IMG/VR virus record: IMGVR_UViG_3300045988_179268
Span: 192,001 to 256,000 of that record
DNA from: a virus
Strand: one strand, 5' to 3'
Length of the DNA: 64,000 bases
The notes below the pieces were generated by a model. It was not told the origin of the DNA, searched no databases, and was given only the letters and a program-made list of their open reading frames with translations. The position numbers and the translations under genes were made by a program. The stretch's first letter is position 1, and every line of letters starts with the position of its first letter. Shown one piece after another: positions 10,764 to 58,585 of the stretch.

Positions 10764-10789
10764 GGAAATAAACTAAAACCATTAAAATC

Positions 10790-10800
10790 TGTGATATTAT
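10790..10800 (+). promoter_or_regulatory. promoter motif (drives E1)
   Basis: TGTGATATTAT, 9 nt upstream of E1 P1. Confidence 0.6.
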
Positions 10801-10809
10801 ATTCGATAA

Positions 10810-10979: not shown

Positions 10980-10980
10980 A

Positions 10981-11039
10981 GGTATGCCGACTTGCTAAAT
11001 CTAGTGAATGAAATAGCCGAAAATAACGGGCTTTAATCA
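10981..11039 (+). repeat. orphan diverged copy of the last 59 nt of gene 9825..10763
   Basis: ungapped alignment to 10705-10763 gives 45/59 identical. 8 of 14 differences are synonymous third positions. It reads YADLLNLVNEIAENNGL-stop against YPDMLNLVNEIAENNGFY-stop. Confidence 0.75.
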
Positions 11040-15756: not shown

Positions 15757-16095
15757 ATGAGTAACACCACCTTTGAACTTCGATATGCCCGGATGCACAC
15801 CCGCAAGTACCTCAAGGGAAAAATGTCGCCCGCCTACGACAATAGGGACGTACACGATGCCTCCCTCAACACGAAGTACGACATGACCGTCACTATGAGC
15901 ATGGTTGAGCGCGACAGCTGGCGCTTACACAATGTGACTGTCCCTAGAGAGAATGTCACTGTTATTGGCGACCTTCGGAACGGGGAGCCTTACGTCATTG
16001 CTGATGATGATTTCAAGCGCTTTGAGGTGCATATTGACATGACCTTTGTTCACGGTGACATGATTAATTTTGTAGTCCCTGAGGTTAATTTCTAA
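15757..16095 (+). CDS. hypothetical protein
   Basis: track ORF, ATG after AAGGA. Confidence 0.6.
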   Translation: MSNTTFELRYARMHTRKYLKGKMSPAYDNRDVHDASLNTKYDMTVTMSMVERDSWRLHNVTVPRENVTVIGDLRNGEPYVIADDDFKRFEVHIDMTFVHGDMINFVVPEVNF

Positions 16096-16327
16096 CCGTA
16101 ACTGGGAATAACGAAAATCGCGAAACGATACTCGCTATTCCCAGGTTAATTTTAGGGTTTTTCAACCCAAGGTCTTACGGCTAACCTACTCCACATAAGC
16201 TCACCTGGTTTCAACTAAAGAGCCACACAACCAGACTTATCACTTACGCTTCTAAGGAGAACACTACCTTAAAGGGAGATGCGCCACTGCCTTGCGTGGC
16301 TACATCTGTATAAGGCTGTATGTAAGT

Positions 16328-28438: not shown

Positions 28439-28537
28439 CGTCACAGTGGCGTGTAGGGGTGATTGAGTGGCATAAAACCTGCAATCACCCCTATGCGCAG
28501 AAACACACCTGCATATTCCACGGAAGAAGGCTCACAT

Positions 28538-29671: not shown

Positions 29672-29746
29672 ACCCCTGTATGGTGGCGCTAACCCTAAAT
29701 CTAGGTAAGAGTTAGTGCCACCATACGCGACACACCAAAGGAAACC

Positions 29747-30832
29747 ATGAGCCACATCAGCAACATTGCTAACCTCAAGGCAGGTGACGTACTCTATGCG
29801 CCTAACCTCACCTATCCAACCTTCGTAAATGGCTCCATCAAGCGTAACGTCATGATGGTAGAGGCGACAGACCCAGAAAGTGACAGTATCAACCTCATTC
29901 GCGCCGATGGGGTGGTCATTAGTGCAAACCTAGCCGACAGTGAGCTACACGCCGCTGGTCATGGCTACCAGAGGTTTGCAGAACTTATCTATGCCCACTA
30001 TCAGCCAGACGGTTCTATCCGCCCATTAGGAACCGGGCTTGGCATCATGCGCCTTAGGGGGCAAATATCGGATGACACGCTGGAATGCCTATGGGACAAA
30101 GCTACCGACGCAATGAAGATGGCAGAGGATATGATGCAGAATGTTGCTCTCTGGAAGGGGATTCTCCCCTCAGAAATTAGCACCCTCGCTTCCACTGGCT
30201 ACCCTTTTATGGATAGGTCTTCACCCCATCTTCACCTCTATCCGGTAGCGGCTTTTCAGCGCCATTTTTCGGAAGGAGCGACGTTCGTCATATCTACAAG
30301 TAGTGCCGCTTCGCCGGAAACGTCTTTCATTGTGACTGTCACCAGCCGTAAGGGTAAAGTAGCGCAAATTGCCACCATTCAGGGTGCGACAGGAACGGCG
30401 ACTTATTCCCCTATGTCCTCAAAAGAACTACGTGTAGTCATTGACGGAATTAAGGTACCTGTCACTTCCATCTATCAGGTAACCCTTAAAGATGGAAGTC
30501 AGCTAGAGGAGTATGTGGAAGCATATAACCTGGAGCACGACAGGAAGCGTCAGGCGATGCAACTATGCCAAAGCGTATTCGGGGAGGAAATTAATCTTGA
30601 ACCCCTATTTAAAGGTACAAGGGGCTGGTACAATAGCAACTGGGAGACAGGTACACGCACTTATGACTACATCCAACCACACATGGGCAACCGAAGTATA
30701 ATTCCGCACATTCTTTCCATCTCAATGATGCTTCTCAAAACTGCAATCGACTACGCCGAAAGGACAATCAGCGAAGCACATGAAACTCTAACCCTTCTCC
30801 AACAAGAACACCCAGACCTATTCCAATACTAG
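29747..30832 (+). CDS. GDV-motif paralog 3 of 6
   Basis: KAGDVLYA, VVIDG. Confidence 0.7.
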   Translation: MSHISNIANLKAGDVLYAPNLTYPTFVNGSIKRNVMMVEATDPESDSINLIRADGVVISANLADSELHAAGHGYQRFAELIYAHYQPDGSIRPLGTGLGIMRLRGQISDDTLECLWDKATDAMKMAEDMMQNVALWKGILPSEISTLASTGYPFMDRSSPHLHLYPVAAFQRHFSEGATFVISTSSAASPETSFIVTVTSRKGKVAQIATIQGATGTATYSPMSSKELRVVIDGIKVPVTSIYQVTLKDGSQLEEYVEAYNLEHDRKRQAMQLCQSVFGEEINLEPLFKGTRGWYNSNWETGTRTYDYIQPHMGNRSIIPHILSISMMLLKTAIDYAERTISEAHETLTLLQQEHPDLFQY

Positions 30833-30858
30833 CCCCCATACGAAAGGCATCCATTGCA

Positions 30859-31971
30859 ATGTTTGACGCAAAGACCAATAGTATCTACGGTAGTCACATC
30901 AAGTACACCCCCAAAGAAGACCTTAAGCCCGGTGACGTATTCTACCTGCCTGGCAGGGATTGCCCAGAGTATGTAGAAGACCTTACCACTCTCAAGGAGG
31001 ACTTCGGAGTCTTTGTCGGTACTTCGGGACATTACGGCTGTAGCGAACTAGCGAATGTAGATAAGGTTGAAGTGGCTGGCAACGGGCTTGAGGTGTTGGC
31101 TAATAAATGGGTTAAGTATCGCCTCGATAATTGGTATCGTTGCGTGTGCCCCACTGTGCCGCCAACAGATATTGCGGAACAGCTAGAAAATGCTCGAAAG
31201 CAGTACCTAGAACTTAAAGCCGTCATGAAAAAGGCTGACAACCTTAAGAAGCATGTCAAGGGCAACCTGTCTGCATTTGCGCAACAGGCAGAGCTACTTA
31301 AACCGAATTACCCCGCAGGGTCTTTGCGTCACCACAGACCTATCAGGCACTTTCACTACCTAAACAGTGTTGCTGTGGGAGAGATGCTTGTTATGAACTC
31401 TACACCAGCTAATGAAGAGGGGCTTGAATCAGCACGTAATGTTGCCATCATGGTTACTAAGAAGCGCAAGCGGAGCGTCGAGTTTATGACACTCACGGGT
31501 GTTAAGGGGTTGCATGGGGAAATTAAGCATACGCAGAAGACTGAGAAGCACGGAGTTTTGAAAGTAACCCTTGATAATGTGAGTATGTTTTGCAGGAGCA
31601 TCTACACTACGGGTATTGTGAATCGCCATGCCATCAAAGAGTACATCGACATCCTCTTGAATGAAGAAGAGCGGACTCAAAACATGCTGGATGCATACTG
31701 GAGCATGTTCCTTGATGATTCCATGCGTGACCTTGCGGCTGAGTTTATTCAGTACTGCGAGGAGAAAGAAGTTGATAACCCCTGGAAGTATCGCGAGGGT
31801 GCTAGTTTCCGACTTGCACCTGACTTTGTTGATGATGAAGAGGTCGTTTTCCATATCCTGCATGGCGCATGTGAGATGGCGACTGACATTTTCGACTGGG
31901 CATCAAAAATGCACAGAGGCGCGGAATATGCCATTGAGCGACTATTTATCCACTATCCCTCTTTGAAGTAA
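30859..31971 (+). CDS. GDV-motif paralog 4 of 6
   Basis: KPGDVFYL, VTLDN. Confidence 0.7.
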   Translation: MFDAKTNSIYGSHIKYTPKEDLKPGDVFYLPGRDCPEYVEDLTTLKEDFGVFVGTSGHYGCSELANVDKVEVAGNGLEVLANKWVKYRLDNWYRCVCPTVPPTDIAEQLENARKQYLELKAVMKKADNLKKHVKGNLSAFAQQAELLKPNYPAGSLRHHRPIRHFHYLNSVAVGEMLVMNSTPANEEGLESARNVAIMVTKKRKRSVEFMTLTGVKGLHGEIKHTQKTEKHGVLKVTLDNVSMFCRSIYTTGIVNRHAIKEYIDILLNEEERTQNMLDAYWSMFLDDSMRDLAAEFIQYCEEKEVDNPWKYREGASFRLAPDFVDDEEVVFHILHGACEMATDIFDWASKMHRGAEYAIERLFIHYPSLK

Positions 31972-38229: not shown

Positions 38230-39384
38230 ATGCCGTCCAAGGAACTTCCTGTAAAGGTAGGCAAGCTTAAAGTCTACGTTCATCTCAAAGTAAATGACCG
38301 CAAGGTGCAAGACTCCATGCTGGAGTACTACAACGCATACATTAAAGTATGCAACCTAGCCAGCAAAGTCGCATACACCCTCAACACGGTAAGCGTGAAC
38401 CGAATCCACGCCCGCGTAAAGAGCGACGCGCGATTCTACGAAGAACAGCACCCTGGAGTACTAGACCGCGCCATTGACGCAGTAACCAAAGACTACGCAA
38501 ATCACGTGGCAGGCGTGAATAAATTCCCCGAAGCACGCACATACAGCGTCCACGACATCCCTGTATGTCAGGACACTGATTACGACTTCATTCCGCTGGG
38601 CAATAATCGACATGGCGTGGAACTCTACCTTGCTAACCGTAGTAGCGGATTCCCTATCACCGTACAGTTCTTGGCGGAATGGCTAAACCTACCCAATGGT
38701 CACGCATACTCCACAACCGCCTCTACCGCCGAACTGTCGTTCGACCACAAGCTAGGTTGGCTCCTTAAGTACGACATGTACACTGTACAGAATACCGTAG
38801 TGGGCATTGACCTGGGCACACGTTTCCTTGCCGTCACCTACGACGGTAAGGAAACTAAGTTCTATCGTGGCGGTGACACCCCCCTCCGGCATGAGATGGC
38901 GACGTATAGCCGCCGCCGCCTAAGTCTCAAGGAGAAGGGTACTCGTAGCGCCCGTAAGCGACTCAAAGCCCTCTCAGACGACTGGCATAAGCATCTGGAA
39001 GCAAATATTAAGAAGACTGTCAAGGAAATTCTTAAGGGTGCTGAGCCTCATACTGTGTTCGCTCTAGAAGATATTGCCGCATCTCCAGAATTGCGAGAGC
39101 GATTCGCCAAAGAAGACGTGGGTAAGCTACCGACCGTCATCTTTGACATGTTCATCCGAACCCTCCGAGATGAGGCGCAGAAACGTGGACATATTTTTAT
39201 TACCGTTTCTAAGGCAAAAACTAGCACAAGGTGCCCCGCATGTGGTATGATTATTAAAAGCAACAGGAAGCAGGGCAAACACATCTACGGATGCTCCTGT
39301 GGTTTCAGGTCTAACGACGACCGTGTAGCCGCAATTAATATCCGTGAACGTGGCATTGTTCGGCTAACTGAACGCCTAGCATAA
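38230..39384 (+). CDS. tnpB: TnpB-family RNA-guided endonuclease (384 aa)
   Basis: GIDLGTRF, ALEDI, zinc ribbon CPACG..CSCG, NDDRVAAINI. Confidence 0.85.
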   Translation: MPSKELPVKVGKLKVYVHLKVNDRKVQDSMLEYYNAYIKVCNLASKVAYTLNTVSVNRIHARVKSDARFYEEQHPGVLDRAIDAVTKDYANHVAGVNKFPEARTYSVHDIPVCQDTDYDFIPLGNNRHGVELYLANRSSGFPITVQFLAEWLNLPNGHAYSTTASTAELSFDHKLGWLLKYDMYTVQNTVVGIDLGTRFLAVTYDGKETKFYRGGDTPLRHEMATYSRRRLSLKEKGTRSARKRLKALSDDWHKHLEANIKKTVKEILKGAEPHTVFALEDIAASPELRERFAKEDVGKLPTVIFDMFIRTLRDEAQKRGHIFITVSKAKTSTRCPACGMIIKSNRKQGKHIYGCSCGFRSNDDRVAAINIRERGIVRLTERLA

Positions 39385-45437: not shown

Positions 45438-45525
45438 ACAACCAAACCTACTGGTGGGTGCCCGCACATACTTATATGATATGCGGGTGCCCACCACACA
45501 AACAGCCGCATGAAAGGTGGTGACA

Positions 45526-46287
45526 ATGACCAACGAAGAACCAAAAATTACCTTTGAAAGCATCCTGCAAAACTGGAACGCACATTATAACCCTATCGCT
45601 AAGGCGCAGACACAACAGCCCATTAAGGCATTAGAGTTAAGCGCCACCATGCGTAACCCCCAAACACCGGCAGGCACATACCCCGCGTTCGAAACCTACC
45701 TTGGTGTTGATGTACTCGAAAAGAAATGTCAGCTTAGACAAGAGAAGCGGCGAAAGCGTAAGGAAATCAGAGGGAAACTCTTTGACTTCCTGAAAGTTGT
45801 CATCACTATACTGCTTGTAGGTGGCGCAATCATCGGCGGTTTCATGTTCTTCAAGCCCAGCACCCCACAGAACACTAGCAATGGTGATATTCAAAACGTC
45901 CCTCAGGCGGCAGAAACCATTACAATAGCATCACCGACCACCACCACCTCGGCGGCACCCACCCCGACAGCGGTACCCGAAGGAACCGTAACGCCCACAG
46001 CGGACGCCACACCAGAACAGAAACACTGCCTTACCACCCCAACCAAATCTCCATTCTTGGACGGTAACGGTGCGTTACACTATGGAAAAGGCACTGGACA
46101 TGATTCATACTATGTTCCCGCCAATGAGGACTGTGGTGTGCGATACACGGCAGAGGACGGAAGTAGCTACCATGAAGAGGACGACAACTCAGTAGGTAAA
46201 GAGATTGCCAAAGCTATCCTCCTCATTGTGAGTGTAGCTATAGGCATGATTCTTCTCGTGATGTTCATTGCCATCCTCGCCATCTAG
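45526..46287 (+). CDS. membrane protein, paralog of 46396..47106
   Basis: ATG after GAAAGGTGG; shared NPxTPxGTYPAFE and YYVPxNEDCGVRYT motifs, central TM, PT-rich stretch, C-terminal TM. Confidence 0.6.
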   Translation: MTNEEPKITFESILQNWNAHYNPIAKAQTQQPIKALELSATMRNPQTPAGTYPAFETYLGVDVLEKKCQLRQEKRRKRKEIRGKLFDFLKVVITILLVGGAIIGGFMFFKPSTPQNTSNGDIQNVPQAAETITIASPTTTTSAAPTPTAVPEGTVTPTADATPEQKHCLTTPTKSPFLDGNGALHYGKGTGHDSYYVPANEDCGVRYTAEDGSSYHEEDDNSVGKEIAKAILLIVSVAIGMILLVMFIAILAI

Positions 46288-46310
46288 ACGACCTCCAAAA
46301 AGAAACCCAT

Positions 46311-46361
46311 ATTGCGACTGGGTGCCTAGCACTATAAGTAGTGCAGGTACCCAGTCGCAAT
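46311..46361 (+). terminator. hairpin terminator
   Basis: ATTGCGACTGGGTGCC/GGTACCCAGTCGCAAT stem. Confidence 0.55.
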
Positions 46362-46395
46362 AACCTACAAGAAAGAAAGGTAGGACAAGAAACCA

Positions 46396-47106
46396 ATGCC
46401 CAGTAAGAGCAATAAGCGACTAGCCGGTGATACCACTAAAAGCTGTATCAGCCACGGTAACACCAAATCGTTAAACGCCGCTACCCGCAACCCTGCAACT
46501 CCGACAGGAACATACCCAGCATTTGAGAGTCACCTCGGGGTTACTGCGCTTGAAAAGAAACATGAACACAAACAAGCTAAACAGCATAAGTGGGTAGCCC
46601 GCAAAGAAAGCATCTCACTACTCCTCAAAACCGTAGTGCCCGTATTCCTTGTAACCGGGGTACTACTTGGTGGCATTATGCTCTTCGCTGGCAACACTCC
46701 ACGAACCAACACTGATAATCAAGCCACTGTTAGTGCCCAGATGACCGCAACACCTCAACCTACCGCCACTCCCACCCCCGAAGCAACAGCAAAGCCAACC
46801 CCAACAAAAACATCTACCGCCTTTATTCAGAAATTGTGTTCCACCACCCCCACGGCAACCCCTTACAGGGACAGCAACGGAGTTATGCAACACCCGGCGG
46901 GTTCAGGAAGAGACGCATACTATGTTCCCTTCAACGAGGACTGTGGCGTGCGATATACGCAAGCGAAGACTGATAAGCCTGCCTCCTCATCAAGCCTGGG
47001 TGACTACCCTATCCTCTTCATCCCTCTCGTTATCGCAATAATGCTAATCGGTGGCGGCGGAATCGCCATAATGGTTGAGAAAACCATGCAAAATTTAACT
47101 AGCTAA
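46396..47106 (+). CDS. membrane protein, paralog of 45526..46287
   Basis: same motifs and architecture as its neighbour. Confidence 0.6.
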   Translation: MPSKSNKRLAGDTTKSCISHGNTKSLNAATRNPATPTGTYPAFESHLGVTALEKKHEHKQAKQHKWVARKESISLLLKTVVPVFLVTGVLLGGIMLFAGNTPRTNTDNQATVSAQMTATPQPTATPTPEATAKPTPTKTSTAFIQKLCSTTPTATPYRDSNGVMQHPAGSGRDAYYVPFNEDCGVRYTQAKTDKPASSSSLGDYPILFIPLVIAIMLIGGGGIAIMVEKTMQNLTS

Positions 47107-47346: not shown

Positions 47347-47490
47347 CTTCCAATGGAGCCAGGTTAGCACCCATAATTGGGTGGCTAAGTGAAGAATCAA
47401 CATGGGAAAGACATACTCATTAAGGTTCTTTACTTAGTCACCCTTCTTAATACCTTATGCGGCATGTGTGACATGTCACAAAAACTAGGC

Positions 47491-47520
47491 TTGTGCAGTA
47501 GTAAAAATATGTGGTACACT
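47491..47520 (+). promoter_or_regulatory. promoter
   Basis: TTGTGC, 18-nt spacer, TGTGGTACACT. Confidence 0.65.
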
Positions 47521-48046: not shown

Positions 48047-48189
48047 CACCTCGCCTGTGAGAGACGGGAGAGGTGGATAATCTAAACGGATAGGTGGCAT
48101 CGGTTACCTGTCAAGACCAGGATAACTGGCATCAGACAGTTTGAGGGTCACCGTTAAGGAAAATCCTTAACTCATCTACCGAATGACTC
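48047..48189 (+). ncRNA. E-module E2
   Basis: begins 11 nt after the -10 at 48026-48036; P1, TCTAAACGG, TCAAGACCAGGA, TTGAGGGTCACCGT, P4 GTTAAGGA-AAA-TCCTTAAC; ends CTCATCTACCGAATGACTC. Confidence 0.7.
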
Positions 48190-48231
48190 TGGGTAATACG
48201 GATTAGCGGGGTAATCACCCTTGCCAGGAAG

Positions 48232-48333
48232 CGTATTCTCCGTACACGCGGGGATGACTCCGGTTTCTGCCCCGTAAATGGGTTAGCCTCATGGCACGCC
48301 GCATCGTATTCTCCGTACACGCGGGGATGACTC
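48232..48333 (+). CRISPR. two identical type I-E-like repeats, non-canonical 44-nt interval
   Basis: CGTATTCTCCGTACACGCGGGGATGACTC at 48232-48260 and 48305-48333 (29/29 identical); the interval itself contains a degenerate repeat, TTTCTGCCCCGTAAATGGGTTAGCCTC. Confidence 0.5.
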
Positions 48334-48447
48334 TATAAACGGGTGGGCAACATTCGTGTCGCACGTCAAGACCAGGAGAGTTAGGTAACTAGCTTGAGGG
48401 TCACCGCCTAGTGAAACACTAGACCCACCCCGCGCAGGGGATGGCTC
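48334..48447 (+). ncRNA. E-module E3 (lacks P1; a full repeat sits in its place)
   Basis: TATAAACGG, GTCAAGACCAGGA, TTGAGGGTCACCG, CTAGTG-AAA-CACTAG; ends CCCACCCCGCGCAGGGGATGGCTC. Confidence 0.65.
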
Positions 48448-48568
48448 CCCGAGTCAGCAACAGGCAACCCAGACATCTTAACCGCGTTCCCTATATACGC
48501 GGGATGACTCACAGGCTCACCCTCACATACTCGCTGGGTGGATTCTCCAACATACGTAGGGCTGGCTC
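48419..48568 (+). CRISPR. mini-array: E3 terminal repeat plus two degenerate repeats
   Basis: repeat ends at 48447, 48510 and 48568 (periods 63 and 58 nt); repeats CGCGTTCCCTATATACGCGGGATGACTC and GGATTCTCCAACATACGTAGGGCTGGCTC. Confidence 0.45.
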
Positions 48569-48604
48569 ATACCAGGTGTGTGACACAGATAACACAAAAT
48601 CAGG

Positions 48605-48634
48605 TTGCGTACCATGAAAAACATGTGGTACACT
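48605..48634 (+). promoter_or_regulatory. tRNA/E operon promoter
   Basis: TTGCGT, 18-nt spacer, TGTGGTACACT; upstream palindrome TGTGTGACACA. Confidence 0.7.
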
Positions 48635-48831: not shown

Positions 48832-48990
48832 TACCTCGCCTGTTGGTGAGATGGGAGAGGTAGTAAAAATAAACGGGTAGGCAACAGTGTTTGTCACGCC
48901 AAAACCTGAAAAGCAGGTTATAGCCACAGGGCAATCTGGGCGCTCCTTGACCGTGCAACAAGGGGTCACCAAAAATCAAAGCACGGGTAT
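48832..48990 (+). ncRNA. E-module E4 (divergent variant)
   Basis: P1 TACCTCGCC..GGGAGAGGTA and AATAAACGGG are conserved; the central part is replaced by other hairpins; GGGGTCACC is retained; 3' end unclear. Confidence 0.4.
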
Positions 48991-49020
48991 GTTCAACACG
49001 TCAGCATAATTGAGTGCTGT

Positions 49021-49174
49021 GACCTCGACCTGCGAGGGGCGGGGAGGTCGAAAAAATAAATGGGCAGGCGGCTACCAGCTATCCTGTCAAGACCAGGAAG
49101 GCTGACGACAGTCAGCTGGAGGGTTACCGTCTAGTGAAACGCTAGACCCAACTCATATAGAGGAAATCCGGCTC
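49021..49174 (+). ncRNA. E-module E5
   Basis: P1 GACCTCGACCTGC/GCGGGGAGGTC (compensatory changes), TCAAGACCAGGA, GGAGGGTTACCGTC, P4; terminal hairpin CTC-ATATA-GAG covaries with CCC..GGG in other copies. Confidence 0.7.
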
Positions 49175-49260
49175 AGTATATATCAGGGGTCACTTTCCCA
49201 TACACGCGAGGATGGCTCCATAGCGGGATGGTTGAAACCTCCCTACATGCGGGATGGCTC
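49146..49260 (+). CRISPR. degenerate repeat cluster after E5 (13-15-nt intervals)
   Basis: repeat-like units end at 49174, 49218 and 49260; ..CCCATACACGCGAGGATGGCTC and ..CCCTACATGCGGGATGGCTC. Confidence 0.35.
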
Positions 49261-49287
49261 CCGCAACAAAATAATACGAAACCAGGC

Positions 49288-49316
49288 TTGCAAACCACAA
49301 AAACATGTGGTACACT
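49288..49316 (+). promoter_or_regulatory. tRNA/E operon promoter
   Basis: TTGCAA, 17-nt spacer, TGTGGTACACT. Confidence 0.7.
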
Positions 49317-49327
49317 GGTTTACATAG

Positions 49328-49398
49328 GCCCATCTAGCTTAATGTAAAGCAACAGTCTTCAAAACTGTGAGATGTCGGTTCAAGTCCGGCGGTGGGTG
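49328..49398 (+). tRNA. tRNA with UCA anticodon (UGA-reading; suppressor or Trp-like)
   Basis: acceptor GCCCATC/GGTGGGT, D arm GCTT/AAGC, anticodon arm ACAGT-CTTCAAA-ACTGT, T arm GTCGG-TTCAAGT-CCGGC, discriminator G. Confidence 0.8.
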
Positions 49399-49447
49399 CT
49401 TGCAAGTAACAAAACCGGAGTTCTAGCCGAAAGTGGCGTAACTTGCG

Positions 49448-49534: not shown

Positions 49535-49674
49535 CTCCTCGTCTGCGAGAGATTGGGAGAGGAGGATAATAAAAACGGGCGCTAACCGCGTCAAGACCAG
49601 GAAAGCCAACGATAGTCAGCTTGAGGGTCACCGTCTAGTGAAACACTAGACCCAGCCCACGTAAGGGGCGGCTC
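49535..49674 (+). ncRNA. E-module E6
   Basis: P1 CTCCTC../..GAGGAG (compensatory changes), AAAAACGGG, TCAAGACCAGGA, TTGAGGGTCACCGTC, P4; ends CCCAGCCCACGTAAGGGGCGGCTC. Confidence 0.7.
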
Positions 49675-49728
49675 AAGAGCAGTGCTTTTACACAGCAAAG
49701 GTCGTGGGTTCAAATCCCTCACGAACCA
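49675..49728 (+). pseudogene. 3' fragment of a Tyr-type tRNA abutting E6
   Basis: GTCGTGGGTTCAAATCCCTCACGAACCA matches the T arm and acceptor 3' strand pattern of the Tyr tRNAs, but no complementary 5' acceptor strand lies upstream. Confidence 0.5.
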
Positions 49729-49756
49729 CACTTGGTACCCTTTTATAGGGCATCAA

Positions 49757-49861: not shown

Positions 49862-50004
49862 ACCTCTCGCCTGTGAGAGACGGGAGAGAGTGAAAACGGA
49901 CGGGCGGCTTCGGTTGCCTGTCAAGACCAGGAGAATTAACTTCGGTTAATTTGAGGGTTACCGTCTAGTAAAATACTTAGACCCACCCATGTATGGGAAG
50001 GCTC
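49862..50004 (+). ncRNA. E-module E7
   Basis: all conserved blocks present; P3 AATTAAC-TTCG-GTTAATT; ends CCCACCCATGTATGGGAAGGCTC. Confidence 0.7.
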
Positions 50005-50064
50005 ATCCAGTCTACAGCTAAGAAAGCGCGCGGTGCAGTATTTCTTATATACACGGGATGGCTC
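49976..50064 (+). CRISPR. one-spacer unit after E7
   Basis: terminal repeat ends at 50004, 33-nt spacer 50005-50037, repeat GTATTTCTTATATACACGGGATGGCTC at 50038-50064. Confidence 0.45.
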
Positions 50065-50202
50065 TCTTACAGTCTGGTTCCTTTTTTGCGCCCATGTGGG
50101 CTGACTGGGAATTACTTATATGAAGAAAGAAGAGATGTGGCATCACTAACATGCACTGCTTTATCTCTGTTTTTTCAGTGACACAGATAACACAAAATCG
50201 AG

Positions 50203-50232
50203 TTGCAAACCACGAAAAACATGTGGTACACT
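50203..50232 (+). promoter_or_regulatory. tRNA/E operon promoter
   Basis: TTGCAA, 18-nt spacer, TGTGGTACACT. Confidence 0.7.
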
Positions 50233-50544: not shown

Positions 50545-50683
50545 GCTCCTCGCCTGTGAGAGACGGGAGAGGAGCTAAATCTAAACGGACACTCACGTGT
50601 CAAGACCAGGAGAGTTGGGCAACCTACTCAAGGGTTACCGTCAAAGTAAAGCTTTGGCACGCTCCGCATAAGGTCGATGACTT
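50545..50683 (+). ncRNA. E-module E8
   Basis: starts 5 nt after tRNA-Gly; P1 GCTCCTCGCCTGT/ACGGGAGAGGAGC, TCTAAACGG, TCAAGACCAGGA, AAGGGTTACCGTC; degenerate end ..GGTCGATGACTT. Confidence 0.65.
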
Positions 50684-50930: not shown

Positions 50931-51052
50931 GCTTCCGTATCCAAGCTAGGTTAAGGGGAGCGTCTTTCATGAGCCTTCTGCACATAACGGCTATGGGAGC
51001 GCTTGCGGTGCATGAGAGTGCCCGCGCGCCGGTTCAAATCCGGTCGGAAGCA
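50931..51052 (+). tRNA. over-long (122 nt) tRNA-like element, anticodon not assignable
   Basis: acceptor GCTTCCG/CGGAAGC and T arm GCCGG-TTCAAAT-CCGGT are canonical, with a plausible D arm; about 35 extra nt lie in the anticodon/variable region. Confidence 0.35.
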
Positions 51053-51084: not shown

Positions 51085-51227
51085 CACCTCGCCTATGAGA
51101 GATGGGAGAGGTGAATAATCTAAACGGACACTAACCATGTCAAGACCAGGAGAACTAGCTTACGCTGGTTAGAGGGTCACCGTCTAACAAAATGTTTAGA
51201 CCCGCCTCGTATTTATGGGGTAGGCTT
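51085..51227 (+). ncRNA. E-module E9
   Basis: P1 CACCTCGCCTAT/ATGGGAGAGGTG (G-C to A-T compensation); all blocks present; ends CCCGCCTCGTATTTATGGGGTAGGCTT. Confidence 0.7.
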
Positions 51228-51309
51228 TCAGCCTCATTAGGTAACCTATTGAGGCACCCTTATTGCAATAGGGGAGCCTTCGGGCTTCTGGCTTTTATCA
51301 CTCATTCTT

Positions 51310-51670: not shown

Positions 51671-51692
51671 CGTATAGTTTTTTTGGCTATGC

Positions 51693-51831
51693 CTCTCGCC
51701 TGTGAGAGACGGGAGAGAGTAAAAACGGACAGGTAGCTTCGGTTACCTGTCAAGACCAGGATAGCGGGGTAACCTGCTTGAGGGTCACCGTCTGACAAAA
51801 TGTTAGACCCAGCCCACGTAGGGGATGGCTC
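51693..51831 (+). ncRNA. E-module E10
   Basis: follows tRNA-Asp; all blocks present; ends CCCAGCCCACGTAGGGGATGGCTC; followed by a 32-nt spacer and a full repeat. Confidence 0.75.
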
Positions 51832-51892
51832 CTTGGACTCGAAGTTTTGACGAATAGGGAGTCCGTTTTCCCAGCACACGCGGGAGTGGCTC
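51803..51892 (+). CRISPR. one-spacer unit with exact 29+32 nt geometry after E10
   Basis: terminal repeat ends at 51831, spacer 51832-51863 (32 nt), repeat CGTTTTCCCAGCACACGCGGGAGTGGCTC at 51864-51892; period 61 nt. Confidence 0.6.
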
Positions 51893-51932
51893 ACCGTGAC
51901 CTCCTGTGTGATACAGGTAACATAAAAACGGC

Positions 51933-51962
51933 TTGCATACCATAGAAACTATATGGTACACT
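51933..51962 (+). promoter_or_regulatory. tRNA operon promoter
   Basis: TTGCAT, 18-nt spacer, TATGGTACACT; upstream palindrome CCTGTGTGATACAGG. Confidence 0.65.
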
Positions 51963-52315: not shown

Positions 52316-52552
52316 CGTAGCATGAAGGGATGTAGCTAATCCTTTCGTAATACACCGGATAAACACTATTCAGAAGGTCGTAGGTTAAAATCCTGCCACG
52401 TGCCACATTGCACGTGTAGCTCGGTGTTATAAGAGCGTCTGGACGGTGCCGGTTTAAGCCATACACAGGGGAAGTGACCTACACACTTCCATAGGGGTAG
52501 CGCCCCGGCTGTCTTGTAGGATAAGGGTACCTCTTAGCGGGGGTGCTCTCAT

Positions 52553-52891: not shown

Positions 52892-52924
52892 CGTAACAGC
52901 ACCTATTATGGTAGTGTGTTATAT

Positions 52925-53070
52925 ACCTCGCCTGTGAGAGACGGGAGAGGTGGTAAATCTAAACGGATAGGTGGCATCGGCTACCTGTCAAGACCAGGAT
53001 GGCGGGGCAACCTGCTTGAGGGTCACCGTCTAGTGAAACACTCAGACCCAACCCACATAAGGGAAAACGT
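52925..53070 (+). ncRNA. E-module E11
   Basis: follows tRNA-Arg(ACG); all blocks present; degenerate end CCCACATAAGGGAAAACGT. Confidence 0.65.
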
Positions 53071-53120
53071 AAGGTGAATCTATTTTGCGGCTTGACCCGG
53101 TATTAAGCCTAGTCAGGAAG

Positions 53121-53205
53121 ATTTTTCCCTACGCATGTGAGGCTGGCTCTACTCAGCCTAACATGCGTAGGCGACGTTTTCTCCGTACACGCGAGGGGAT
53201 GGCTC
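53121..53205 (+). CRISPR. two degenerate repeats after E11
   Basis: ATTTTTCCCTACGCATGTGAGGCTGGCTC at 53121-53149 and GTTTTCTCCGTACACGCGAGGGGATGGCTC at 53176-53205; 26-nt interval; the first repeat and the interval form a long inverted repeat. Confidence 0.4.
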
Positions 53206-53750: not shown

Positions 53751-53874
53751 CGCTCATGCGCGGCTTTTTGTTGCGTGTGTTGTGGTGACTTTCGGTAGTT
53801 ACCTTTTTTGTACGGCTTGGGCTGGGTTTGGTTTTTCCTCACTTTTGCCTTACTCAGGTTTCTGGTCGTGTTTC

Positions 53875-53947
53875 GCGCTTTTAGCTCAGTTGGTAGAGCA
53901 AGGGACTCTTAATCCCTGGGTCGCGGGTTCGAGCCCCGCAGGGCGCA
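53875..53947 (+). tRNA. tRNA-Lys(CTT)
   Basis: acceptor GCGCTTT/AGGGCGC, anticodon arm AGGGA-CTCTTAA-TCCCT, T arm GCGGG-TTCGAGC-CCCGC. Confidence 0.85.
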
Positions 53948-53977
53948 CGTAGCACATTCCTTTTGGGTGTGTTTACT

Positions 53978-54128
53978 CACCTCGCCTGTGAGGGACTGGG
54001 AGAGGTGGCTAATCTAAACGGATGGGTAGCTTTGATTGCCTGTCAAGACCAGGAGAATCTGCCTTTGGTGGGTTTGAGGGTCACCGTCTAATAAAATATT
54101 AGACCCAACCCTGTGCAGGGGATGGCTC
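53978..54128 (+). ncRNA. E-module E12
   Basis: follows tRNA-Lys(CTT); all blocks present; ends CCCAACCCTGTGCAGGGGATGGCTC. Confidence 0.7.
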
Positions 54129-54175
54129 GACAAAAAAGTCAGGCGGTGTTTTCCCTGTATACGCGGGGATGACTC
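54100..54175 (+). CRISPR. E12 terminal repeat plus one repeat, 18-nt interval
   Basis: repeat TGTTTTCCCTGTATACGCGGGGATGACTC at 54147-54175. Confidence 0.4.
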
Positions 54176-54306: not shown

Positions 54307-54459
54307 CACCTCGCCTGTGAGGGACTGGGAGAGGTGGTTAATCTAAACGGGTGGGTGGCTTTGGTTGCCTGCCAAGACCAGGAAAGCTGGCTTCGGTCAG
54401 TTTGAGGGTCACCGTCAAAGTAAAACTTTGGCTCATCTACCGCATAAAGTGAATGGGAA
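54307..54459 (+). ncRNA. E-module E13
   Basis: follows tRNA-Arg(TCT); all blocks present; end of the E2 type, CTCATCTACCGCATAAAGTGAATGGGA. Confidence 0.7.
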
Positions 54460-54495
54460 ATGTGGGTTGGCGAGGTGTTTATCCTTGTCAATAAG

Positions 54496-54638
54496 GATTT
54501 TCCCCGTACACGCGGGGATGGCTCCTGGACCCTCAAACTTGCTAGAGTAGAGCACGTATTTTCCCCGTACACGCGGGGATGGCTCTAACGTCAAGCCTAT
54601 TAGCGTTTACGTTTTCCCTTGTATGCGTGGGGTGACTC
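54496..54638 (+). CRISPR. three-repeat, two-spacer type I-E-like mini-array
   Basis: R1 54496-54524 and R2 54557-54585 are 28/29 identical (ATTTTCCCCGTACACGCGGGGATGGCTC). Spacer 1 is 32 nt (period 61). Degenerate terminal repeat at 54610-54638 after a 24-nt spacer. Confidence 0.65.
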
Positions 54639-54743: not shown

Positions 54744-54775
54744 CGTTCATGCGCGGTTTTTGTTGCGTGTGTTTT

Positions 54776-54848
54776 GCGCTTTTAGCTCAGTTGGTAGAGC
54801 AACGGACTCTTAATCCGTGGGTCGCCGGTTCGAGTCCGGCAGGGCGCA
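54776..54848 (+). tRNA. tRNA-Lys(CTT), second copy
   Basis: anticodon arm ACGGA-CTCTTAA-TCCGT, T arm GCCGG-TTCGAGT-CCGGC. Confidence 0.85.
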
Positions 54849-54878
54849 CGTAGCACATTCCTTTTGGGTGTGTTTACT

Positions 54879-55029
54879 CACCTCGCCTGTGAGGGACTGG
54901 GAGAGGTGGCTAATCTAAACGGATGGGTAGCCTTTGGGTTGCCTGTCAAGACCAGGAAAATTAGCTTAGGCTGATTCGAGGGTCACCGTCTGGCAAAATG
55001 GCAGACCCACCCTTTGTAGGGGGCGGCTC
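54879..55029 (+). ncRNA. E-module E14
   Basis: follows the second tRNA-Lys(CTT); near-duplicate of E12; ends CCCACCCTTTGTAGGGGGCGGCTC. Confidence 0.7.
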
Positions 55030-55098
55030 AGTGTTTGAGAATGAGGGTTGCGCCCTCAGCGAGTATTTCCCGTAAATATAATTACTATTTCACATTGT

Positions 55099-55247: not shown

Positions 55248-55274
55248 ATTTTTTAGTTGAAAGGTTTTCATAGA

Positions 55275-56309
55275 ATGTTTGTTTGCGAGGATGTGTCCCC
55301 TGTTGGTTCTGGCAAGGTTCAGTCTATTTCTTTGGGGGAGTCATTTTTGCCTGGTGACGTGATGGATGTATTGAATCCGTCTATTCCGAGTGCGGCGGCG
55401 CGTATGGTATTGATTTATAAGCGTGATGTTGTCTCTGCTGGTGCGCAGTTGGTGGGCGTTTTCACTGTTTCTGCCGACCCTGCTACTTTTGCGGGTGGTG
55501 TTGATGGTCAGGGTATTATTCCAGGTGTTGCCTCTGGTTCGCTTGTTGAGCGTGTCGTTGAGAGTGTTCCTGTGCAGGGTGGTGATTACGCCTCACATGC
55601 GTTGAAGGTTGCGTCCTGGTTGTCTAATTCTGGTGTGCCGCTGGGTTATGGTGGTGATTTGCGCAATGGTTTTGCTTTTACTGCGTTTGAATCTGCTGAG
55701 GGCGCATGTGCTGTGCCTGATGCGTTTGAGTTTTTGGATGCGGCGGGTGTGTCTGTCCCTTGGTATAACGAGGGTAACTATTTCGGGTACACTGTTTCTG
55801 GTGTTAGTAAGATTAGTTCCCTTAAGGGTGTGGGTTCTGTGTTGGGCGACCTTGGTGACGTTGGTGTGGACTCCCGCGCGCTGAGTCAGGGGGTTGATGG
55901 TGCTGGCGACAATGCTTATGTCGCGTGGTTGCTGTGGGGTGTTGATGATGGTGGTCGTGTTGGGGATGTGCATCTTGTGGCTGGTGACCCGACGCTAAAT
56001 GGGTTCCCGACTGTGGGGTTGCCGTTTATTAAGGGCGCTCCTCAGCTTGTGGGTGTCCCGGTTGAGGAGTATGGTTATCGTTTGGTGACGAAAATGTTCA
56101 CTAATTTCACTTCTGTTTTTGTCACTATTAAGTCCCCTTTGTTTAATGCTAATCGTGTTTGTTATGATGCTGGTAAGGGTTTGTATTCTTTGCCTGTTGT
56201 GGTGACTTTGGGGTCTGAGTCGCCATTGTGGGTGCCTGGCGATTTGGGGGCGCGTATGCGCTATGTTAAGGCTGTTTTGGGGCGCGATGGGGCTTTAAAT
56301 ATCTTGTAA
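55275..56309 (+). CDS. G/V-rich paralog A in the GT-biased island
   Basis: ATG 55275 after GAAAGG (track TTG 55257); C-terminal YDAGKGLYSLPVVV matches the two downstream genes. Confidence 0.55.
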   Translation: MFVCEDVSPVGSGKVQSISLGESFLPGDVMDVLNPSIPSAAARMVLIYKRDVVSAGAQLVGVFTVSADPATFAGGVDGQGIIPGVASGSLVERVVESVPVQGGDYASHALKVASWLSNSGVPLGYGGDLRNGFAFTAFESAEGACAVPDAFEFLDAAGVSVPWYNEGNYFGYTVSGVSKISSLKGVGSVLGDLGDVGVDSRALSQGVDGAGDNAYVAWLLWGVDDGGRVGDVHLVAGDPTLNGFPTVGLPFIKGAPQLVGVPVEEYGYRLVTKMFTNFTSVFVTIKSPLFNANRVCYDAGKGLYSLPVVVTLGSESPLWVPGDLGARMRYVKAVLGRDGALNIL

Positions 56310-56388
56310 ATAGCCTTTTTGGGGAGCTTGTCATACTTTTGTGTGGCAGGCTCCTTTTTGTGTGTTTTCCGGGTTTTGGGCGGGTTGG

Positions 56389-56399
56389 TGTGGTAGACT
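56389..56399 (+). promoter_or_regulatory. promoter motif
   Basis: TGTGGTAGACT. Confidence 0.55.
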
Positions 56400-56462
56400 G
56401 GTGGTGGGGTTGCGTCGGGTCTTGACGTTGCCCCCTTTTTTCTATCTTTTTCTACTATTTTT

Positions 56463-57455
56463 TTGGAGGTTGTTGTGGCTTTTGATTGGTTGAGGGGCAT
56501 TTTTGGTGGTTCTGGTGATGGTGAGCCTGTTGAGGGTGGTGCTTTTAGGGAGTCGGGGGTTTCTGATGCTGATGTGATTGCTGAGTTGGAGGCTTCGTTG
56601 GGTGCGCCGTCTGGTGGTGTTGATGTTTCGCGTCTGGTTAGTTGTGAGTTTGGGTTGCCGGGGCATGTGTTGTTTTTGTTTAAGCCTGTGGGTGGTGGGT
56701 TTGTTTTGGATGGTGTGGTGTGTGTTGGTGTGAGTGGTCGTGGTGTTGGTGGTGTTGGTAATGGTCGTGGGGTGGTTTGTTTTGGGCAGGAGCCTGTGTT
56801 GGAGGTGTTGGGTGGTTCTAGGGTTTATTCTGTGGAGGATAATTTTAGTGAGGTTGGGCGTGGGTTGTATGGTGAGGTTTTGAGTGAGGGGTGTTTGTTT
56901 GTTGGGGTTGGTGAGTCTGGTGGTTTGGATTTGTTGAGGGTTGTTGAGTCGGATGGTGTTGATTTTATTTTGGGTGACCCGTCGTTGGTGGGTTTGGAGG
57001 TGGAGTCTTTTGATGGGGGTGAGTTTGTGTGTGTGATTGCGCATAATGTGCGTGTTGATTTGTCTGCTTCGGTTTCTGTTGGTGAGGCTGTTGGTTCTGT
57101 GGGTGATGTGGGTTCTGTGGCGCGTGAGTATGTTGGTGTTGAGGGTGCTATGGTCGGTTGGTTCTGTTGGTGGGCTTCGGCGGCTGGCGTTGAGTGGGGG
57201 TATGTTTTGGGTGACCCGCGTGGGGGTGGTTCGCCGGTGATGGATGTTCCGCTTGGCGGTATTTCGGGGTTGTTTAGTGGGCTTATTGCTGGTGTTGGCA
57301 GTATTGAGGATGTTGGTGTTAGGGTTGCTGGTTCGTTTAGGAATACTCGTTTCGGTAATGTTGAGTGGGTTGCTCCTTTGTATGATGATGGTCGTGCTTA
57401 TTATGATGAGGCGGCGCAGTTGTATGCGATGCCGGTGGTGACTGTTCTGCATTAG
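56463..57455 (+). CDS. G/V-rich paralog B in the GT-biased island (start uncertain, GTG 56475 possible)
   Basis: open frame in a stretch that is about 85 percent G+T; C-terminal YDDGRAYYDEAAQLYAMPVV. Confidence 0.5.
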   Translation: MEVVVAFDWLRGIFGGSGDGEPVEGGAFRESGVSDADVIAELEASLGAPSGGVDVSRLVSCEFGLPGHVLFLFKPVGGGFVLDGVVCVGVSGRGVGGVGNGRGVVCFGQEPVLEVLGGSRVYSVEDNFSEVGRGLYGEVLSEGCLFVGVGESGGLDLLRVVESDGVDFILGDPSLVGLEVESFDGGEFVCVIAHNVRVDLSASVSVGEAVGSVGDVGSVAREYVGVEGAMVGWFCWWASAAGVEWGYVLGDPRGGGSPVMDVPLGGISGLFSGLIAGVGSIEDVGVRVAGSFRNTRFGNVEWVAPLYDDGRAYYDEAAQLYAMPVVTVLH

Positions 57456-57577
57456 CGCCTTTACCCGCTTTCGGGGGTATGGGTTTTGCGCTGTGGGGTG
57501 TTAGAATAAGGTGTGTTGCTTGTCCCCTTTTTGGGGTTCGGTGATGCACCTTATTCTTTTTTGTTTTTGGGAGGTTT

Positions 57578-58585
57578 TTGTTGTCTTCGTCGTTCATGAA
57601 GGACCCGAATGTTGCTAGTTCGCCTGTTGATGGTCAGGTGTACAATATTGTTCCTTTGGAGGATTTGAATGAGTTTGACCGGGTGGATACGAGTCATTTC
57701 GTGTCTGAGCCTACGTTGGATTCGTTGGATGGGTTGGCTAATTTTGCGTTAGGTTCATCGTCTGAGTTCCTGTTCTTGTTTGAGGATTTGGACGGGGTTC
57801 CGGTTCTTTCTGGGATTGTGTTTGCGGTGACTACGCCTAACGGTGTTGGTCGAGCTATCTTGCCTGCGCATGACCGTATTGTGTCTAGCGTGTGGGATGA
57901 GGTTTGTAAGCGTTCCTCTTCAACTTCGCGTGAGCGTCTGTCTGTGGCGTGTGCCGAGGTACTGGTTGAGCGTGGCACAGCGTTCATGTCTGCTTATACT
58001 GATGCGTTGCCTATTGGTGTTGCTAGGAAGTTGCGTGGTAAGAATAATGGGCGTGAGGTGACAGCCCAGTATGTGTTGGATAACTATGGTTTGATGCCTC
58101 AAGATGCTGTGAAAGCACATGCTGTTGGGGTGTCTGCTGACTTCATGGTTTCGGATGCGGTGAAGGTTCTTTATCGGAAGGATTCTGAGGCTATTAACCC
58201 GGTGTCTGCGGGTCGTCCTGGGTGGGCGCATGTGGGTTGGTTGCAGTGGCGTATGAGTCCGACTACAGGTCTTGAGTTAGGATTGGGCTTTGGTGCTCCT
58301 TTTGGGGAGGCTGATTCTTTGCCTTACGTGCCGCTGGTTCCCGTCTTTAAAGACACCTTTAAGCGTATGGTTATGGCGTATTCTCCTTCTGAGGGTGCCG
58401 TCGGTGCTACATTTATGTCCATCATTCAGGATGGCACGTTTAAGGGTAACGGTGACGAGTTCACTATTGGTGGCGCACTTTATAATGACGGCAGGTACGC
58501 TTATGATTCCGCTTCGGGGGTTTATGCTATGCCTATTATTATTGAACAGCCGCGCGCCACGGCTAAGGTGTTCATGGTGAACTAG
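57578..58585 (+). CDS. paralog C in the GT-biased island (start uncertain)
   Basis: GGGAGG upstream; C-terminal YNDGRYAYDSASGVYAMPII. Confidence 0.55.
   Translation: MLSSSFMKDPNVASSPVDGQVYNIVPLEDLNEFDRVDTSHFVSEPTLDSLDGLANFALGSSSEFLFLFEDLDGVPVLSGIVFAVTTPNGVGRAILPAHDRIVSSVWDEVCKRSSSTSRERLSVACAEVLVERGTAFMSAYTDALPIGVARKLRGKNNGREVTAQYVLDNYGLMPQDAVKAHAVGVSADFMVSDAVKVLYRKDSEAINPVSAGRPGWAHVGWLQWRMSPTTGLELGLGFGAPFGEADSLPYVPLVPVFKDTFKRMVMAYSPSEGAVGATFMSIIQDGTFKGNGDEFTIGGALYNDGRYAYDSASGVYAMPIIIEQPRATAKVFMVN

Follow-up and report, generated by a model that had tools for sequence, protein, structure and literature searches.

What are the irregular clusters of CRISPR-like repeats doing among the transfer RNA (tRNA) genes of a huge phage? 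The question is raised by IMG/VR virus record IMGVR_UViG_3300045988_179268, of which we analysed the 64,000 nucleotides (nt) from position 192,001 to 256,000 as one strand, 5' to 3' (the window; positions below are counted from its first nucleotide). Between 47.4 and 55.2 kb the + strand of the window carries 25 tRNA genes, and interspersed among them are a ~130-nt element (E) and 28-29-nt repeats resembling those of CRISPR arrays. The initial annotation had flagged positions 48171-48568 because repeats there stand at very short or very long intervals, and had taken them for possible decoys rather than working arrays. It did not contain the point from which our reading starts: every repeat cluster is physically coupled to E, which is a structured RNA. 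We propose, at a probability of roughly one in two, that these E-repeat (E-R) cassettes are phage-borne mini-CRISPR guides that use the type I-E system of the host against related phages.

The window has a G+C content of ~50% and encodes proteins mostly without known function; a polynucleotide kinase/RNA ligase, a serine resolvase and three TnpB-like open reading frames (ORFs) are among the few with a match. Identical or related proteins are encoded by metagenomic contigs of 150-320 kb, several of them from human-microbiome studies (including the Human Microbiome Project, HMP), and the window is therefore part of a huge phage. Among isolated phages (INPHARED) no near relative of the window was found, only its tRNA genes found matches and E was absent; the RNA ligase/Pnkp of the window is just 24-27% identical in protein sequence to those of Firmicutes phages. 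Comparisons were made with related loci (L-numbers), which are contigs from IMG/VR and metagenomes sharing E, the repeats or window proteins. No type I cas gene was found among the 62 ORFs of the window (PADLOC, Pfam), which covers 64 kb of a ~320-kb genome.

The repeats are not a product of chance, as a 25-nt pattern with <=3 mismatches finds six matches in the window and none in 100 shuffles. The consensus, GTTTTCCCCGTACACGCGGGGATGGCTC, was drawn from 49 distinct 28-mers and consists of a 6-bp G/C stem, an ACAC loop and a 7-nt handle. Stem positions are paired in 78-94% of the copies and intact repeats fold strongly (-11.6 to -12.8 kcal/mol). Variation is found in the 5' part of the repeat. 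The handle hardly varies and is the best-conserved part; together with the G-run it is kept even in degenerate copies. Three window repeats, at 48541, 49191 and 53122, lack the hairpin. By its length, hairpin and handle position the repeat is of type I-E. Its closest counterpart is presumably the type I-E repeat of Streptococcus thermophilus CRISPR4, to which the consensus is ~22/28 identical; for the Escherichia coli repeat the figure is ~20/29. CRISPR4 combines a 28-nt repeat with 33-nt spacers, a 7-nt 5' handle and AA as protospacer-adjacent motif (PAM), while the type I-E PAM of E. coli is AAG. Neither of the two IMG/VR relatives holds a long array with this repeat. A scan of genome contigs for a host with the pattern CCCCGN6CGGGGATGRCTC was discarded, the pattern being too permissive: the matches listed were mostly chance hairpins and unrelated high-GC actinomycete arrays. 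The single extra IMG/VR match of the repeat search (L007) was likewise an unrelated high-GC array.

Unit lengths in the clade follow a canonical spacing, a 28-nt repeat and a 33-nt spacer giving a 61-nt period. Of the 43 distinct repeat-to-repeat units 21 measure exactly 61 nt (60-63 nt in 27/43), which makes the irregular spacing a tail to a canonical distribution and not the rule. A second class of units measures 46-51 nt, with spacers of ~18-23 nt. Such spacing had been said not to yield canonical 61-nt CRISPR RNAs (crRNAs). The flagged cluster lacks a 61-nt unit; the window also holds two of them, outside the cluster (handle to handle, 51825->51886 and 54518->54579), and units of 60, 63, 58 and 56 nt. 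The short intervals described earlier are present: 13 nt at 49219-49231, 18 nt at 54129-54146 and 25-26 nt at 53150-53175. Spacers of ~18-23 nt stand between an E-fused hairpin and the first full repeat in L208 (776)/L174 (5044), in L134 (1993)/L003 (2570) and at 54129-54146 of the window, and some are conserved between relatives with one change; these short spacers may be regulatory, like crRNA-like RNAs (crlRNAs), rather than interference guides.

Spacers turn over between close relatives. L134 and L003 carry E, an extension of it (X, described below) and repeats that are near-identical at two loci, with unrelated 32-33-nt spacers. The sequences following a handle were searched against the window and the related loci, and matches that were themselves preceded by a handle were discarded. 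Guides matched tRNA-Gly, tRNA-Asp (minus strand), tRNA-Leu, E elements and several protein genes of relatives. In 13 of 16 independent guide-target pairs the target is immediately preceded by AA, directly 5' of the base aligned to the first post-handle nucleotide (background 6.8%, binomial p ~3e-13 with pairs counted as independent events; the count includes two junctions read by eye, that of E3 in the flagged cluster and that in L255). Target position -3 is not conserved. The phage's own homologous locus is mismatched to the guide and related viruses are matched, both for the window cassette at 10706-11039 and for about 12 pairs in relatives. Taken together, the spacer turnover, the AA-flanked targets and the intact hairpins fit a type I-E system with an AA PAM, in acquisition as well as in use.

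These results bear directly on the decoy explanation, according to which the units would bind Cas6e, Cas5e or Cas7e in aberrant complexes and shield the phage whatever their spacers contain, as RNA anti-CRISPRs (Racrs) do. Such phage-borne CRISPR repeat mimics, lacking cas genes and expressed as small RNAs, were described by Camara-Wilpert et al. (2023, PMC10651486); solitary-repeat Racrs act as inhibitors of types I-F, I-E and V-A, and interference is likewise lowered by a non-targeting crRNA (PMC10651486). The window has much that would suit a decoy: many I-E-like repeat units in a highly expressed non-coding RNA (ncRNA) region with no type I cas genes nearby, some of them degenerate, irregular spacing, and a handle and G-run conserved even where the repeat has degenerated; one E-hairpin product per cassette could also hold Cas6e without formation of Cascade, and competition for Cas6 and Cas7 is conceivable here as in Racrs. 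However, the modal unit is the canonical 61 nt, close relatives carry different spacers, and AA-flanked guide matches in related phages would be needless for a pure decoy; the conserved 130-nt E and the junctions between repeats and truncated genes would be left unexplained. Racrs are solitary units with their own promoter and no spacer-repeat partner, and they need no matching spacer, whereas the units here are clustered, E-coupled and furnished with spacers, some of canonical length and with AA-flanked targets; even the solitary cassettes, which have a promoter-like -10 box, carry E plus a guide. We regard the decoy proposal as partly supported and, as the sole explanation, unlikely. Competition of phage units with host crRNAs for Cas6e, Cas5e or Cas7e is possible all the same, and a Racr-like benefit is compatible with the guide reading, since phage RNAs flooding Cascade would dilute host crRNAs (PMC10651486).

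The second class of units raises another alternative, viral crRNA-like regulators (Cracrs or crlRNAs), in which degenerate units with short spacers (~18-25 nt) would guide Cascade to host promoters of cas or toxin genes for repression without cleavage. Small phage arrays of this kind, with degenerate repeats around 21-24-nt pseudo-spacers and type I-E examples among them, have been described (10.1101/2024.10.29.618823), and the resemblance extends to the 46-51-nt units of the family, to a short spacer TACAGCCTAGACG[C/G]TCAAGC conserved between L208 and L174, and to the window intervals of 18, 25 and 25-26 nt. Cracr spacers match host cas or toxin promoters, whereas the guide-target pairs found here lie in phage genes, and the 13-nt interval is too short even for a Cracr. 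We consider this regulatory reading of the short-spacer units quite improbable.

E itself was located by two conserved anchors, GTCAAGACCAGGA and GAGGGTYACCGTC, in 13 copies in the window, one of which lies at 10.8 kb, far from the tRNAs. The anchor pattern also matched two IMG/VR contigs (307 and 361 kb), ~80-90% identical in the ncRNA region, and many metagenomic contigs. RNAalifold on 23 copies gave five helices with 36 pairs, 22 of which show compensatory changes. With a covariance model, 14 copies are found in the window and, at an E-value <=1e-10, 96 in all when the related loci are added, across a clade of phage contigs of 160-360 kb; in the 96-sequence alignment 96.9% of the pair cells are canonical and in 27/36 pairs both sides change. 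Shuffles never attain these values, and slid registers pair at 33-45%. UUCG or GNRA loops close the variable hairpins, and G-U pairs are frequent; E is therefore an RNA read from the + strand. Its junction sequences, with GTCAAGACCAGGA and GAGGGTCACCG conserved, are nearly invariant, which suggests a protein- or ligand-binding core, or a ribozyme. Rfam 15 holds no family for E at the gathering score, at an E-value <=1 over 8.1 kb or at an E-value <=10 over 311 nt, and assignment of E, X or the repeat to a known family was dropped after these three sensitivities; resemblances to tRNA-like structures, ribozymes and T-boxes had no model support. E is a new structured RNA family, tied to CRISPR repeats.

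Downstream of nearly every copy of E stands a hairpin followed by RTGGCTC, in one of two forms. In the first, a short hairpin (P5) is fused to the end of E, for example CCCACGTAGGGG ATGGCTC; in the second, a ~60-nt extension (X) ending in ..AGTCAGGAAG leads to a full 28-nt repeat. Spacers and further repeats come after either form. E occupies the leader position, and in solitary cassettes it starts at the likely transcription start, with a -10-like box 8-10 nt upstream. After Cas6e cleavage E would end in a repeat hairpin. Candidate roles are guide expression or antitermination, stability, preferential loading and recruitment of a partner, and we would guess at a 5' module that acts in cis and that the guides need for their expression, stability or loading. 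The family is abundant, and its function could reveal how foreign guides are fed into host Cascade.

A structured RNA of ~130 nt placed 5' of a guide also recalls the scaffold of a nuclease encoded by the phage itself, either TnpB/Cas12-like or a phage Cas set, that would read the DNA flanking the right end of the element as its guide, in the manner of the omega-RNAs of IS200/605 elements. The solitary cassettes require no downstream repeat, which would suit such a scaffold, and three TnpB/Cas12f-like ORFs are present in the window at 2194-3750 (+), 16328-17644 (-) and 38230-39384 (+). However, one of them already has an omega-RNA of its own: IS605-orfB-I (RF03065) at 16092-16316 (-), 196 bits, at the 3' end of ORF 16328-17644. 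The 28-nt repeat, the 33-nt spacer, the 61-nt period and the two-base AA motif fit type I-E and not TnpB/Cas12, and the lack of a long array with this repeat in the two IMG/VR relatives also speaks against a nuclease scaffold. We regard it as very improbable. As an omega-RNA of the TnpB-like genes of the window E was rejected, because no copy of it overlaps or adjoins any of the three ORFs.

How the flagged cluster came about may be read from the order of parts at 48047-48568 (all on the + strand). This stretch opens with E2, a complete E copy with hairpins P1-P4 (48047-48179; covariance model 143 bits, structure supported by covariation), and an extension X (48180-48232, ending ..CCAGGAAGC) that links the E core to the first full repeat, in the position of an array leader; homologous extensions ending ..AGTCAGGAAG precede the first repeat in many copies. 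R1 (48233-48260, GTATTCTCCGTACACGCGGGGATGACTC) is an intact 28-nt type I-E-like repeat with a hairpin of -11.6 kcal/mol (z -3.9), and R1' (48262-48290, GGTTTCTGCCCCGTAAATGGGTTAGCCTC) is the degenerate repeat that had been noticed inside the gap, abutting R1 without a spacer and with a weak hairpin (-7.8 kcal/mol, z -1.3). R2 (48306-48333) starts 15 nt after the end of R1', is intact and identical to R1 (28/28), and its handle abuts a 5'-truncated E. The two 29/29-identical repeats recorded earlier are thus real: CGTATTCTCCGTACACGCGGGGATGACTC stands at 48232-48260 and 48305-48333, with a 44-nt gap at 48261-48304. The truncated copy, E3, is a core without P1 in the spacer position after R2 (48334-48432); as had been observed, a repeat fills the place of P1, and the covariance model aligns 48309-48432 as a full-length copy at 71 bits. 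Fused to the 3' end of E3 is P5, a short hairpin CCCCGCGCAGGGG with the handle ATGGCTC, that is, the 3' half of a repeat (48428-48447). A spacer-like interval follows (48448-48482; handle-to-handle unit 63 nt), for which no target was found in the related loci searched, then R3 (48483-48510), a degenerate repeat with its handle retained and its stem weakened, and R4 (48541-48568), a degenerate repeat which has kept the GGCTC handle and lost the hairpin (-1.9 kcal/mol, z +0.9). Unit lengths within the cluster are 73, 114, 63 and 58 nt, and the 61-nt period does not appear in it.

The junction between R2 and E3 explains why a repeat sits where P1 should be. E3 begins at TATAAACGG, and complete E copies read GGATAA|TCTAAACGG at this point, so that the junction lies directly 3' of an AA. 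The repeat stands in P1's place because a repeat-target junction was formed at an AA site inside an E element, and E3 is a truncated target in spacer position, like the truncated genes found behind other repeats; L167 has a comparable junction inside P4 of an E. The cluster would have started as an E2-X-R1 cassette in which R1 was duplicated (R1', then R2), R2 being fused at the AA site to a truncated E, with two decaying repeat units after it. A rearranged, partly decayed cassette is the best reading of this cluster.

Partial decay is therefore possible, and the earlier suggestion of decaying arrays fits several units of the cluster. If the repeats were neutral relics, remnants of arrays taken from a host by recombination and now without function, one could point to the hairpins lost at 48541, 49191 and 53122, to R1' abutting R1, and to 48180-48568, for which, E parts aside, the relatives examined gave no orthologue. 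But about 96 copies in diverged phages preserve the layout of E, hairpin and handle, variation in the repeat falls in its 5' part and hardly touches the handle, R1 and R2 are identical at 28/28 positions, and intact 61-nt units and spacer turnover exist in the family. General neutral decay seems to us highly improbable.

One junction lies outside the tRNA region. A solitary E-R cassette (10706-10980, +) is set into the 3' end of ORF 9825-10763; its parts, in order, are copy A (a recoded gene end, 10706-10763), a promoter-like stretch, E (10810-10946), a short P5-type hairpin with GGCTC, and a repeat (10952-10979). The repeat handle (..GGGGATGACTC) ends at 10979 and is followed directly, in the guide position, by copy B (10980-11039, +), the displaced 3' end of the ORF: a second, diverged version of its last 58 nt, in frame through the stop codon. 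A search of IMG/VR for related loci gave no homologues of this ORF; they were recovered via the protein database. Alleles ending ..GFY* (the window, L227, L255/L256) carry the cassette, and those ending ..ENNGF* (L248-L254, L259) lack E by a covariance-model check. In the cassette-free alleles the gene end and the sequence downstream run collinear with copy B and what follows it in the window; therefore the inserted block comprises copy A, the promoter-like stretch, E and the repeat. Guide B has 3/33 mismatches to allele L252 and six to its own copy A, PAM-proximal positions among them, and GAA stands before its target. The same cassette meets the gene at another place in L255 (GAAAA|TAACGGATTCTAG), which is an independent junction, and in L227 the differences between copies A and B are confined to the 32 nt that follow the handle, a spacer's length. 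Between guide B and L248, mismatches fall in a 6-nt register (5, 11, 17, 23); we set this aside as uninformative, as these are third codon positions (chance ~0.24), and the register depends on the choice of a 7-nt or 8-nt handle.

Junctions of this type recur at other loci. A repeat meets a 5'-truncated neighbour at a different protein gene in L006/L178; in L129 the junction is at tRNA-Leu(TAA), and the guide matches the tRNA-Leu of the window with one or two mismatches; in L174 it lies at the T-arm of tRNA-Asn; in L208 the repeat is fused inside a gene homologous to the first of three ORFs that start at 55257 in the window. Repeat ends are breakpoints of rearrangement and mobility. Directly upstream of ORF 9825-10763 lies a serine resolvase (9000-9707, +; Pfam Resolvase + HTH_7). 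The pair is syntenic in all alleles fetched (L248-L259), the resolvase being broken up in L255/L256, and the two genes might be a mobile unit themselves.

These features can be joined in the following way. Each cassette would be its own transcription unit or a segment of a tRNA operon, with E (sometimes plus the ~60-nt X) followed by one to three I-E-like repeats. A Cas6e-type enzyme would cut the transcript at the 3' base of each repeat hairpin, and the handle-initiated RNAs (ATGGCTC) would be bound by Cas5e and Cas7e and loaded into a type I-E Cascade, most likely that of the host because no type I cas gene lies in the window. Complexes with canonical or 6-nt-shortened spacers could bind AA-flanked targets, and the guides would thereby direct Cascade to alleles of related phages with an AA PAM, as a form of inter-phage competition. 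Since the guides are homologous to co-infecting relatives, often to the adjacent gene, recombination between spacer and protospacer would fuse the repeat end to a 5'-truncated target; recombination within the 33-bp homology would yield the fusions observed, and these would move the cassette together with a recoded target copy into new backgrounds in a homing-like manner, scrambling arrays on the way.

Virus-borne mini-arrays are known to target adjacent genes of related viruses (PMC6858448, PMC11656645), in what has been described as interviral conflict (Medvedeva et al., 2019, PMC6858448). The E-R cassettes resemble them in having one or two spacers and no cas genes nearby, in the turnover of spacers between close relatives, and in guides that match related viruses, often at the array-adjacent gene, with the own locus mismatched. 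They differ in number and setting, with about a dozen arrays per genome within a tRNA cluster, in having a conserved structured RNA ahead of each and not a host-like leader, in terminal repeats fused to truncated target genes, and in many shortened spacers or degenerate repeats.

Several points weigh against mini-arrays that use the host system. The guide-target pairs come mostly from relatives, with just two in the window; the internal spacers of the window have no target in ~1 Mb of related loci, and the canonical spacer 54525-54557 has no IMG/VR match even with every sixth base left free. Degenerate repeats are numerous in the window, and a standard Cascade needs longer intervals than the 13, 18 and 25 nt found there. 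Solitary cassettes have no downstream repeat, and their guide would miss the 3' hairpin normally held by Cas6e. Allele L259, which is cassette-free, may not be naive: copies A and B could have recombined to give a revertant. No host or cognate host array was identified among the matches listed by the over-permissive pattern scan, and the phage may encode cas genes elsewhere in its ~320-kb genome, a fifth of which was covered. The mini-array model also leaves unexplained the need for a conserved 130-nt RNA.

A more tentative extension is that the cassettes are selfish "CRISPR homing" elements, guide-RNA genes without a nuclease of their own; we hold it to be possible, though doubtful. A borrowed host type I-E system would cut the cassette-free allele (AA + protospacer) in a co-infecting phage, and repair from the cassette-bearing genome would copy the cassette in. 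The insertion would replace the PAM with a repeat and bring in the recoded gene end, leaving carriers immune, and E would be a cofactor, for example loading or stabilising the guide or recruiting recombination or nuclease proteins to it. A parallel is the omega-RNA-guided transposon retention of TnpB/IscB elements that Meers et al. reportedly described in Nature in 2023. There too, a structured RNA lies at the right end of a mobile element and takes flanking DNA as its guide, and insertion parts the PAM or target-adjacent motif (TAM) side from the target, so that only the empty site can be cleaved. Unlike those elements, the cassettes contain no nuclease gene, their repeat and PAM are of the type I-E kind, they bring a recoded copy of the end of the target gene, and they have no left-end/right-end (LE/RE) hairpins or TnpA. 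Another parallel is SegB of phage T4, a free-standing homing endonuclease in a phage tRNA region (PMC2330249): as with SegB, the selfish cassette would sit among the tRNA genes of a phage, cleave the allele of a relative infecting the same cell and, together with the markers beside it, be passed on preferentially, and sequence differences would guard the genome that carries it. Its specificity, however, would lie in an RNA guide and a nuclease borrowed from the host instead of in an encoded protein. Should homing occur, nature would hold an RNA-guided gene drive that can do without its own nuclease gene, and this would link mini-arrays, omega-RNA-guided transposon retention and homing endonucleases.

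If the guide reading is right, huge phages use numerous CRISPR guide cassettes at the same time, wired into tRNA operons and aimed at their own relatives, and the mobility of these cassettes reshapes phage genomes at repeat ends. Three features used here, the mode of the unit lengths, the PAM at targets and the conservation of the handle, serve as practical rules to separate working mini-arrays from decoys.

The other cassettes of the window are all on the + strand and show the same parts in varying states of preservation. At 48832-49260 a degenerate E (48832-48949) and an E (49021-49155) are followed by degenerate repeats at 49191-49218 and 49233-49260, 13 nt apart. The cassette at 49535-49734 has E (49535-49659) and P5 with its handle (ending at 49674) abutting a 5'-truncated tRNA remnant (partial tRNA match 49670-49720). 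That at 49863-50064 comprises E, P5 (handle 49998-50004), a 33-nt interval and a repeat (50038-50064), a unit of 60 nt. Two copies of E end in a degenerate hairpin and handle, one starting 5 nt after tRNA-Gly (50546-50682, ..GGTCGATGACT) and the other at 51085-51232 (..GGGGTAGGCTT). A canonical 61-nt unit is found at 51692-51892, where E and P5 (handle 51825-51831) precede a 33-nt spacer (51832-51864), kept in the relative L237 with five changes, and a repeat (51865-51892). At 52924-53205 E and X lead to two repeats (53122-53149, hairpin lost; 53176-53205) in a 56-nt unit, and at 53978-54175 E and P5 (handle 54122-54128) are followed by an 18-nt interval and an intact repeat (54148-54175). The cassette at 54307-54638 consists of E, X and a three-repeat mini-array: 54497-54524, 54558-54585 (33-nt spacer, 61-nt unit) and 54611-54638 (25-nt spacer). 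The last, at 54879-55097 upstream of tRNA-Asn, has E and P5 (handle end 55029), a 32-nt spacer and a decayed repeat; in the relatives L208 and L174 its homologue is joined to a truncated downstream gene or to the tRNA-Asn T-arm.

In the same region, a 166-nt segment made up of tRNA-Lys-CTT, a trailer hairpin and the 5' half of E is present twice, at 53868-54033 and 54769-54934; the 96% identity of the copies shows a recent tandem duplication or gene conversion of tRNA-E units. A generic sigma-70 and terminator scan of the window gave nothing above shuffles. A ~46-nt motif (..TTGC.TACC....AAAA.ATGTGGTACACT) occurs in five copies on the + strand (47475-47520, 48589-48634, 49271-49316, 50187-50232 and 51917-51962), preceding an ORF and tRNA/E blocks. 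It is probably a phage-specific promoter that the generic sigma-70 scan misses, the repeated TTGC..N17..TACACT motif being the candidate.

Some tRNA-like features of the window stand out. The 72-nt tRNA at 49328-49399 (+), anticodon TCA, is labelled "SeC" (selenocysteine) by ARAGORN; it is more likely an opal-suppressor tRNA and hints at UGA recoding late in infection. The ORFs of the window read normally under code 11. A 122-nt tRNA-like sequence at 50931-51052 (+) matches the Rfam tRNA model over its full length (35.7 bits) and hence contains a large insertion, and inside the tRNA cluster 52352-52458 (+) gives a weak YrlA/Y-RNA-like match of 28 bits, below threshold. The gene at 24413-25981 (+) encodes a fused polynucleotide kinase/phosphatase/RNA ligase-like protein (PHROG RNA ligase; Pfam AAA_33, Metallophos, RNA_lig_T4_1), an enzyme of the tRNA-repair type in a phage with 26 tRNA genes as well.

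Directly downstream of the tRNA/E cluster, 55257-58585 (+) holds three ORFs of ~330-350 amino acids (aa) with no Pfam match and with TGGTGTTGGTGG-like repeats; strand composition is extreme at 56-58 kb (GC skew 0.46, AT skew -0.55). Tandem paralogues are found at 27311-31971 (+), with four ORFs of ~360-400 aa that are 19-25% identical, and at 45517-47106 (+), with two ORFs of ~240-256 aa that are 37% identical.

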